Positions 7,075 to 32,348 of a DNA stretch of 64,000 nucleotides are shown piece after piece (within the stretch, counting starts at the first letter, position 1; every line of letters starts with the position of its first letter). Position numbers and translations under genes: made by a program. Under the pieces are notes generated by a model. That model ran no database searches, was not told the origin of the DNA, and saw only the letters and a list, made by a program, of their open reading frames with translations. The stretch covers positions 19,282,001 through 19,346,000 of the forward strand of contig OZ024747.1 in the NCBI GenBank assembly GCA_964016885.1, written 5' to 3'. Source of the DNA: Eledone cirrhosa. Lineage: Eukaryota.

Positions 7075-7460
7075 CAAGACCTGGCATAAGATTGGTGGAG
7101 AAAGGTGGTGTTTGTTGATCGATGTAGCTTGCCTAGACGACCATTACATCAATAGTAAAGAAAATGAGAAAATCGTAAAGTATGTAGACCTGAGAATAGA
7201 AGCCGAGAGAATGTGGAATATGAAAGCAAGAGTGGTGGTACTAATTGTAATTGGAGAGCTTGGGTCGATGGCAGAAAACCTCCAGAAAAATCTTGATAGA
7301 ATTGGAATCAGTCCTAGTATTACGACATTGCAGAAAACAACACTTTTGGGAACAGCAAATATCCTGCGGAAATTACTGTCTATCTAAAGTTACATAACTT
7401 GATAGGGAGTCAATTAAATGATCCAGTGTTAATAAGGTCCTTACTGTGCAAATGAAGGAT
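7075..7460 (+). pseudogene. 3' fragment of an R4/Dong-type non-LTR retrotransposon (restriction-like endonuclease C-terminus)
   Basis: LLIDVACLDDHYINSKENEKIVKYVDLRIEAERMWNMKARVVVLIVIGELG...LQKTTLLGTANILRKLLSI*, then a short 3' UTR ending at AATAAT. Confidence 0.8.
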
Positions 7461-8081
7461 AATAATATTTCTACTTTTGGCACAAGGCCAGCAATTATCC
7501 CAGTGCATTACTGGTGCTTTATTATATTGACCCCGTAAAGATGAAAGCCAAAGTTAACCACGGCGGATTTGAATTCAGAACGTAAAGGGCCATAACTCTA
7601 TGCTGCAAATCATGGTGGCTGACGCTCTACCGATACTGCCAAAAATAATTGTTTCTACTTTTGGCACAAGGCCAGCAATTACTCAGTATATTACTGGTAC
7701 TTTATTTTATCGACCCCGTAAGGATGAAAGGTAAAGTTAACCTCGGCGGGATTTGAACTCAGATCGTAAAGGGACGTAACTACGCTGGAAAGCATGTCCG
7801 ACCTTTCTACCAATACTGCCAACTTACCGCCCTTATTCACCCAATTCACCGACCTTTCTACCGATACTGCCAAAAATAATGATTCCTAGTATAGGCACAA
7901 GGCCAGTAATTTGGGGGAGGGAAACATCGATTAAATCGACCCCAGTACGTTACTGGTACTTCATTTTATCGACCCTGTAAGGATGAAAGGCAAAGTTAAC
8001 CTCGGTGGATTTGAACTCAGATCATAAAGGGCCATAACGCTTTGCTGCAAAGCATGGTGTCTGACGCTCTATCGATACTGC
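7461..8081 (-). mobile_element. Array of three SINE family 1 copies (one with a duplicated head)
   Basis: Copies at ~7461-7641, 7644-7871 and 7874-8081, each separated by AAAAATAAT. Confidence 0.9.
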
Positions 8082-8644
8082 CAAAAATAATAATAATTGT
8101 TTATAATTTATGCTCAAGGCAGGAAATTTATTAGTGGGTGGTAGGGGTGGTGAGTGAGGTGGGGGTTGTTATATGTGAAATCGTTTGGCACAAATTGTAT
8201 GCATGTATAATTGTTGTTGCTGTTGACAACATTTTCACTGTTTCACTCGTGGTATTTCAACTGATATTTTAGAAGACAGGAAACATATTGTTTTCTTTTT
8301 TTGTGTGTTCAATATTATTTCACCGTGCATTTAAATTATAATTCTTTTTTAGTTATTTTTCTGTCTACGTACTGTATTGTTTTGTTCATGGCGAATTTTT
8401 GAAGGGAGGCTTCGCAAGGGTTTTTTATAGCCATTTCCATGTATAGACAGGACTGATTTAAGAAGAAATGAAATTTGTCTAAAAACAGACAAACCTTATT
8501 TATTTTTTAGTAAAAATGATGTTTTGGTCGGCATAACATTTTTTTTCGGCAATTGGTCCTGGTATTGAAACACCAAAACTCCACAACCATCAACATATTG
8601 TTTTATTGTCCTCCAGATTAAACATCAAACTATGTATATATGTA

Positions 8645-31053: not shown

Positions 31054-31112
<59 letters not shown>

Positions 31113-31194
31113 CACATACACCAATTAAACAAAGTCACAGGTATTCACGATGTGACTCAATGAAGAATTAATAAATTAAACAATCAGAGCAAAA

Positions 31195-31390
31195 TACTAT
31201 AGAGTAAAGCATGTCCAGAGAATTATTTGATAATATATATACATCATCTCTACTCCCAATCAGCATAATTAACCACACAAAAAATCAATTAGACCAGGCT
31301 ATAAGAATAAAAGGCACCTCTGAAGAAACAGAAAGAGATGATGTATATATATTATCAAATAATTCTCTGGACATGCTTTACTCTATAGTA
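31195..31390. repeat. Perfect 57-bp inverted repeat with an 82-bp spacer, between (TA)n tracts
   Basis: 31195-31251 is the exact reverse complement of 31334-31390. Confidence 0.9.
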
Positions 31391-31395
31391 CTATA

Positions 31396-31451
<56 letters not shown>

Positions 31452-31459
<8 letters not shown>

Positions 31460-32302
31460 GAGAGGTATAGAGATTGTTTTAGCAAGAAGCTAACGGCATT
31501 CTATAACATATATGCGACTATAACGTCAAGATGGGAAAAGTAGTTAACGAAAGATTTAGGAAAAATAACTCAAACTCATCTCAAAAGAGAATCAGGATAT
31601 AAATTCATCCACAGAATTTAGTAAAATCCAGGGAAAAATCTATAGACCTTTAACTCATGATAAAATAAAGTTTGAAACACTTATCCTTCAATTTGGAATA
31701 ACATCAAATGCTCTGTATAGTCTTAAAAGACTATTTCATGAAAATTTTCAGTGGAGATGGTCACGGTTGGAATTTCATTCATCAGCAGAGCTCAACAGAA
31801 AACCAGGGCTCTCACAGTAATATAATCCGAAAAAGGGAATTCTAAAACTGGCTAGTTCGCCTTCATGTGTATTTATGAAAAAGCACATGAGGAAAAAACG
31901 GGGCTAGTGACGTCAGGATGGAAGTGAATGTTTATTTACAAGAAATAGCAGTCAAATACATTCTGAAAAAAAAACTCTACAAAGGAGTTCAGCAAAATAG
32001 CAATAATTATCACAGTTTTTATGAAAAAAACCGGGATTAGTCACAGATAGTTTAAGCACTCTAGGAAAAGAATCCGAGTATAAATATAAATGAGAGGTAT
32101 AGAGATTGTTTTAGCAAGAAGCTAACGGCATTCTATAACATATATGCGACTATAACGTCAAGATGGGAAAAGTAGTTAACGAAAGATTTAGGAAAAATAA
32201 CTCAAACTCATCTCAAAAGAGAATCAGGATATAAATTCATCCACAGAATTTAGTAAAATCCAGGGAAAAATCTATAGATAACTCATGATAAAATAAAGTT
32301 TG

Positions 32303-32305
<3 letters not shown>
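31452..32305 (-). mobile_element. Retrozyme/Penelope-like non-autonomous element: 632-bp unit with a ~225-bp terminal direct repeat, in (TA)n
   Basis: 31452-31677 and 32084-32305 are identical except for a 4-bp indel. A complete HHR lies between them, there is no ORF, and (TA)n flanks both sides. Confidence 0.75.
31710..31791 (-). ncRNA. Complete Type I hammerhead ribozyme
   Basis: Minus strand: stem I GCTCTG/CAGAGC; CTGATGA; stem II ATGAAA/TTTCAT; GAAA; stem III TAGTCT/AGACTA; cleavage triplet ATA. Confidence 0.85.

Positions 32306-32348
<43 letters not shown>

Follow-up and report, generated by a model that had tools for sequence, protein, structure and literature searches.

A high-copy hammerhead repeat of Eledone cirrhosa with one fixed end at (TA)n tracts, a probable relative of animal non-LTR retrozymes

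Animal non-LTR retrozymes are described as head-to-tail repeats that lack coding capacity and carry a single type I hammerhead in each unit, with a GC content below 50%, a distribution of dispersed monomers and multimers, and co-occurrence with Penelope-like elements (PMC7229834; 10.64898/2026.07.22.740005). Circular RNA has been shown for the coral, mussel and axolotl representatives (PMC7229834), and eight of nine Xenopus retrozyme dimers were reported without cleavage (10.64898/2026.07.22.740005). How these repeats reinsert, that is, by which enzyme, from which template and from which start, is a model in the literature and not a demonstrated mechanism (PMC7229834; 10.64898/2026.07.22.740005), and both mobilization by Penelope-like elements and circles that give longer-than-unit copies have already been proposed (PMC7229834; PMC4209133; PMC7761336; 10.64898/2026.07.22.740005). 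Penelope-like elements and their pseudo-LTRs form partial-tandem, 5′-truncated insertions at microsatellite targets, occasionally with a 5′ inversion, and the 3′ end of a pseudo-LTR lies downstream of the hammerhead, inside the next unit (PMC11167929; PMC8557442; PMC4209133). Internal initiation has been described for a Penelope-like element, and the one such element tested in vitro, from anole, used uncut RNA as its main substrate (PMC11167929). Plant LTR retrozymes have non-coding monomers of 600-1000 nt, type III hammerheads in both LTRs, fixed ends, PBS/PPT and target-site duplications (TSDs) of 4 bp (PMC7761336; 10.64898/2026.07.22.740005).

By every sequence feature open to test, the Eledone cirrhosa family described here resembles an animal non-LTR retrozyme, and we take it to be a previously undescribed member of that group, with circular RNA as its probable source. 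It shares the non-coding head-to-tail arrangement, the type I hammerhead of each unit, the low GC content (33%), the dispersed monomers and multimers, and the co-occurrence with Penelope-like elements. Its 632-bp unit exceeds the 150-450 bp given in PMC7229834 and falls within the 51-972 bp given in 10.64898/2026.07.22.740005, and its helix III has 7-8 pairs versus 1-2 in most animal type I motifs (PMC4209133). The family inserts in (TA)n with its 3′ end fixed 260 nt from the cut; the accessible literature on animal retrozymes yielded no comparable end map, and a search covering few subscription journals and no repeat database returned no description of this family or of such a map. The anatomy of its insertions is like that of Penelope-like elements and pseudo-LTRs, including a 3′ end inside the next unit; the absence of an ORF, the full instead of minimal hammerhead, the single fixed end and the lack of a tail are differences. 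The putative start site of the family is target-like, unlike that of the anole element, which is non-homologous to its target (PMC11167929). No sequence link between the family and a Penelope-like terminus was found among the elements sampled, as is also the case for the 33 of 57 Xenopus families without a transposable-element match (10.64898/2026.07.22.740005). Plant LTR retrozymes are alike in monomer size and in being non-coding, but the type I hammerhead of our family lies outside the duplicated part and one end varies, so that an identity defined by type III hammerheads in both LTRs and fixed ends was rejected.

The window, a 64-kb stretch, contains an insertion of 850 bp (31456-32305, minus strand), about 1.35 times the 632-bp unit, which reads u39-u632 followed by u1-u260 when the unit is numbered in ribozyme sense from the first base past the predicted cut (u1, 31715). 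An earlier note, made from these letters alone, had proposed a tandem duplication of 632-bp period with one 4-bp indel, and comparison of the copies bears this out: 31447-31646 is repeated at 32079-32278, and the sequence from 31651 on is repeated from 32279 on. The copies differ solely by CCTT (31647-31650), which is missing on the right between 32278 and 32279, and by one base in the TA flank; the family-majority state at the CCTT site is that of the left copy. The 3′-terminal partial unit, u1-u260 (31456-31715, minus), extends from the cut site to the fixed 3′ end of the family at 31456, the likely start of reverse transcription. The second copy of u39-u260 (32088-32305, minus) is 5′-truncated at 32305, a point private to this insertion, and is adjoined by an internal copy of the fixed-end site (u260-u269; 32079-32088, minus) that is short, AT-rich and similar to the (TA)n target. 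A long hairpin is predicted at u30-u161 (31555-31686, minus), between the ribozyme and the fixed end. The (TA)n that the note had seen on both sides is present as unstranded tracts at the fixed 3′ end (31397-31455) and at the truncated 5′ end (32306-32343). The note's right-hand bound of 32305 stands, and its left-hand bound of 31452 includes four ATAT bases common to the flank, the element proper beginning at 31456. No stop-free frame in the element exceeds 83 codons, in agreement with the claim that it has no ORF. An active retrozyme copy has been defined by two consecutive units with whole hammerheads (10.64898/2026.07.22.740005); the window copy has a single whole hammerhead and therefore could not by itself release unit-length RNA, which makes it a one-hammerhead, dead-end product. 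Nearby, a separate TA-flanked repeat (31112-31395) contains a perfect 57-bp inverted repeat (31195-31251 and 31334-31390); a search for its family gave 2,232 first-look candidates, and copies often fold back on themselves in the manner of a 5′ inversion.

The hammerhead motif, which the note had read on the minus strand from 31791 to 31710 with a predicted cut between 31716 and 31715, is confirmed as type I with stems of 6, 6 and 7 pairs. It is the sole match of a hammerhead scanner in the window, and the scanner matched none of 100 window shuffles and none of 5,000 element shuffles. Rfam gave no match at gathering score and no hammerhead family at E values up to 10. An alignment of 26 copies, for which the search pattern had fixed the 5′ strand of stem I and the core's first half, has 93.7% of its cells paired. 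Stem II covaries across subfamilies, with compensatory exchanges (C-G/U-A and A-U/U-A) in 13 cells compared with 0 of 500 shuffles, a count that derives from two pairs only and is inflated by the kinship of the sequences. The core is kept, with N7 variable, at 30 loci picked on a motif outside the ribozyme; it is intact in 227 of 231 covered units, a sample partly selected on that region, and has changed at 4 of 824 bases among copies chosen by their 3′ end alone. When the unit is folded as a circle, the predicted lowest-energy structure contains the hammerhead (z of -4.5 against 30 shuffles), with modeled pair probabilities of about 0.9, 0.5 and 0.85-1.0 for the three stems. Three observations weaken the case for a ribozyme. 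The first pair of stem II, A-U in the window, is non-standard and mostly U.U in 23 of the 26 aligned copies, versus the usual G-C; in old copies the hammerhead region is not clearly better conserved than the rest of the unit; and in young copies rare mutations are not depleted in the core (4 seen versus 4.8 expected), a negative result for selection. The loose ends of X1 and X6 contigs that cover window positions 31726-31774 suggest a distant relative that has only the middle of the hammerhead in common.

The window insertion belongs to a large family. Four DNA queries on the 3.0-Gb assembly each gave 1,118-2,157 first-look candidates, 40 of which were scored per query. Exact patterns counted over the whole genome recovered 841 young-subfamily 3′ ends, 1,034 intact cut sites and 801 hammerheads with another base at N7, and the older-subfamily 3′ motif has 4,305 matches genome-wide, some of them internal to arrays. 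Head-to-tail arrays, as expected of a non-LTR retrozyme, occur at many loci (262 exact internal junctions) and reach 12.7 units in the young family. One hundred young copies have a mean identity of 98.9% to their majority sequence, consistent with the recent insertion that the note had inferred. Identity to the window unit is 79-94% in older copies, whose unit length and fixed end are unchanged. Two loci (L034/L035 and L048-L050) have a variant whose period, about 599-600 bp, is some 33 bp shorter.

The 120 loci from the four queries, three of which lacked the fixed end, merged into 73 regions, and the 3′ end falls at u255-270 in 68 of the 70 that could be assessed, the other two ending elsewhere; on longer sequence, the three regions cut by a locus edge had the same 3′ end, for a total of 71 of 73. 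This end lies 260 nt downstream of the cut, where an AT-rich stretch joins (TA)n. For the 5′ ends we used the first 100 listed of the 841 exact 3′ ends (93 on C1 and 7 on C2, with three pairs that share flanks and may be segmental duplicates). These copies range from 19 to 4,673 nt (median 270); 50 extend beyond the first cut, 24 are longer than a unit, 15 reach past the second cut and 13 have the length for two whole hammerheads. Of the 81 times that a copy met a cut site, none ended within 8 nt of it (upper 95% bound 3.6%). Stops occur at a rate of 0.42 per 100 nt in copies below 100 nt, at about 0.15-0.25 up to 900 nt, and less often in longer ones, without a step at the cut or at unit length. 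A TA flank directly at the cut was found at 5 places genome-wide versus 1,034 intact cut sites, and rough arithmetic predicts about 5 from random stops because TATA precedes the cut. The 5′ junction is at TA in 86 of the 100 copies, often at TA-like bases of the unit itself. TSDs, which in non-LTR retrozymes are longer than 4 bp when present, are not readable within (TA)n flanks.

A constant 3′ end combined with dispersed 5′ ends is what target-primed reverse transcription leaves behind. The circular permutation of both ends favored by the earlier note does not hold, since one end is fixed and the other varies, both over the 73 regions and in the 100-copy sample. Its argument against an LTR element survives, as the duplicated stretch changes length between copies, and so does its view of a retrozyme-type element read through the hammerhead cut site, at which no encounter stops. 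There is no sign of cut linear RNA having served as a template. The ends accord with target-primed reverse transcription that begins at a fixed point on RNA with an intact cut site, which would be either a re-ligated circle, the template we favor, or an uncut multimer. The family is likely a passenger of Penelope-type elements, because its copies nearly always end at the same base beside a TA microsatellite.

Our preferred account, which we consider somewhat probable, is that the window insertion is a 5′-truncated copy of a high-copy, non-coding hammerhead repeat, likely made by a Penelope-like reverse transcriptase (RT)/endonuclease from a probably circular RNA, at a nick in (TA)n and from one internal AT-rich start. 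Arrays with at least two hammerheads would be transcribed, and the hammerheads would excise a 632-nt monomer that a host ligase closes into a circle, as proposed from other animal retrozymes. A borrowed enzyme would then prime at the observed site 260 nt past the cut, where the RNA resembles the target, and would continue through the cut site to the scattered stops. Units of inserted arrays would later be gained or lost as DNA, in keeping with the array patterns described below. More tentatively, and with confidence short of even, we suggest that the family records rolling-circle target-primed reverse transcription, in which a Penelope-like enzyme recognizes a structure on an unrelated 632-nt circle, primes by (TA)n/AT-rich microhomology and makes several turns through the ligated cut. 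If so, the thousands of ends would chart, at single-base resolution, the way in which animal retrozymes reinsert, a step that is so far hypothetical. The family's youth and copy number suffice to place the start site within a few bases and to show that copying does not halt at the ribozyme cut, and its end statistics reduce the question of reinsertion to two testable templates, circle or uncut multimer.

The second of these templates defines the alternative that survives best, although we regard it as rather unlikely: the same element and Penelope-type priming, with an uncut linear multimer as template, arrays regenerated by unequal crossover, and a hammerhead that is slow or serves as a binding fold. 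It accommodates the lack of stops at the cut, is in line with the dominance of uncut RNA as a substrate in vitro (PMC11167929), and would suit a hammerhead whose first stem II pair is non-canonical. Changes at the DNA level, which it needs, are evident. Among 74 arrays, 70 variants are held by only some units, in adjacent (period-1) and alternating (period-2) patterns; six rare variants occur in all internal copies and are absent from the terminal one; and in one old array (L430) a two-unit block that pairs an intact hammerhead core with a damaged one is repeated three times. Thus arrays can be rebuilt without a circle, tandem length alone is no footprint of circular RNA, and because arrays also change as DNA, an uncut multimer read from a homogeneous array is possible. 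On the other side, no pair of arrays has a common run of unit-specific variants in register (6 of 47 single-variant pairs are in register, with at most three variants common to any pair), the hammerhead is intact with compensatory change across about 20% divergence even though cutting would destroy a linear template, and only 13 of 100 copies could hold two whole hammerheads. We also considered dimer circles with one dead hammerhead as the source of period-2 arrays, which would fit one unit class at C1:203.70 Mb (a core change at u566) and L430, and set them aside; DNA duplication explains these arrays better because their terminal units keep the ancestral bases. L430 itself (G000:C1:82129000-82138900) has at least 14 units and ends tail-to-tail with an inverted copy.

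The distribution of variants within insertions also bears on the circular template that we prefer. Recurrent variants in u1-250 are common to terminal and internal copies in 74 instances, terminal-only in 9 and internal-only in 3, and seven variants private to single insertions are present in every copy there, including the terminal one, which indicates that one haplotype is usually read repeatedly. Among the 92 insertions with doubly covered positions, 24 variants (each in at least six insertions) gave 135 fixed and 21 discordant instances; these 21 of 156 count against our best explanation. So do the changes of arrays at the DNA level, the preference of the anole element for uncut RNA in vitro (PMC11167929) and the Xenopus dimers reported without cleavage (10.64898/2026.07.22.740005). 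A repeatedly read monomer fits the shared variants, and the same data argue against priming on an inherited (AU)n tail. Our preference for the circle has two grounds: the subfamilies have retained an intact ribozyme although copying does not end at its cut, and circles have been shown for the animal retrozymes cited above (PMC7229834). The note's proposal of copying from a circular or tandem RNA therefore stands as far as reading through the cut site is concerned, whereas greater-than-unit length, on which it had relied, is no proof of a circle, given that an uncut multimer or DNA duplication would produce it too.

Inheritance of the fixed end is the essence of a further alternative, in which a LINE would prime a SINE-like element at the genuine 3′ end of a read-through transcript terminating in genomic (AU)n. 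Every source copy does terminate in (TA)n. Bases of the internal junction are not enriched at 3′ ends (9 instances, versus 3, 9 and 5 at other offsets), and a Penelope-like tail of 30-40 nt past the 3′ end was found at one place genome-wide, in a rearranged copy, versus 841 plain ends; both results also weigh against our preferred account. The window also contains RT fragments that we take to be LINE-like. We nevertheless consider this origin improbable: it predicts a separate lineage of terminal units, whereas the subfamily variants are common to internal units (74 versus 12 instances), and cut 3′ fragments should yield 260-nt copies, of which there are none among the 100 sampled. Even less probable is a Helitron-like origin, in which a non-autonomous rolling-circle DNA element would have a single fixed end, its origin, and the hammerhead would be a passenger. 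One-ended rolling-circle transposition can give one fixed end and head-to-tail multimers, both of which are observed, but it leaves unexplained an RNA fold conserved with covariation, a truncation polarity that follows the ribozyme strand, and the inverted 5′ piece of a few copies (L016 and L221 among them). Helitrons start with TC and end with CTRR, and the fixed end has neither. A single-copy local duplication or assembly artefact, the outcome that the note had set against its own reading, is practically excluded by the hundreds to thousands of dispersed copies and by contigs of unrecorded kind from public runs (four of six were covered) that contain the unit, those of X4 and X6 with the joint leading back 631 bases, though these may not be independent of the assembly.

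For the reverse transcriptase/endonuclease of the preferred account, the genome offers abundant candidates. A search for GIY-YIG domains gave 10,596 candidates, 150 of which were scored, and 50 loci around such matches fall into at least seven groups. All five ORFs tested have an RT and four also pass for a C-terminal GIY-YIG; ORFs with both domains reach 938 codons, so that the family co-occurs with Penelope-like elements in the way described for non-LTR retrozymes. A CX2-5CXXC linker, ascribed to the Neptune clade (PMC8557442), is present in five of seven ORFs inspected. In elements with RT and GIY-YIG, minimal hammerhead-like motifs are followed, roughly 110-210 nt on, by an end at (TA)n, and in several families the main end is likewise at an AT-rich stretch. 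One young Penelope-like family (L336-L365; median identity 97.5%, many inverted pairs, ORFs of 900-905 codons in several copies) has two fixed 3′ ends at (TA)n, separated by about 47 nt and used by 16 and 11 of 30 copies, mirroring the two internal starts of the anole element (PMC11167929); one copy runs past both ends into the next ORF start. We infer a Penelope-like helper by analogy and name no particular element, since the families compared have no sequence in common with the unit beyond a weak AT-driven alignment, and the unit has no tail. Neither the 50 GIY-YIG loci nor the 30 copies of the young family include an autonomous element with the 632-bp unit sequence, which likewise counts against the preferred account; compared with the unit, the 50 loci gave only family insertions and chance matches, and family pieces near ORFs with RT and GIY-YIG are separate insertions in TA tracts. 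The idea that the repeat is itself the pseudo-LTR terminus of an autonomous Penelope-like element was rejected, as the unit sequence carries on in all 50 of the copies that read beyond the cut. The likeness of the unit 3′ end to that of the young family (F) was not significant (p 0.08-0.5), and we also discarded a 21-nt antisense match of the unit to one ORF end (E 7.5; best tblastn E 0.76). Of 28 pairings, that of an old copy with family E gave p 0.001 through an AT repeat, with p 0.07-0.2 for the three other copies, and is a weak lead. Downstream of the ORFs, several Neptune-like families (L151-L170) have degenerate minimal hammerhead-like motifs that are conserved within each family, with TTGATAA or TTGAAAA replacing CTGANGA and a palindromic CCGG loop. 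In one Penelope-like copy (L167), the minus strand at 7306-8415 has an ORF of 370 codons that matches nothing in Pfam and is located upstream of the RT-endonuclease frames.
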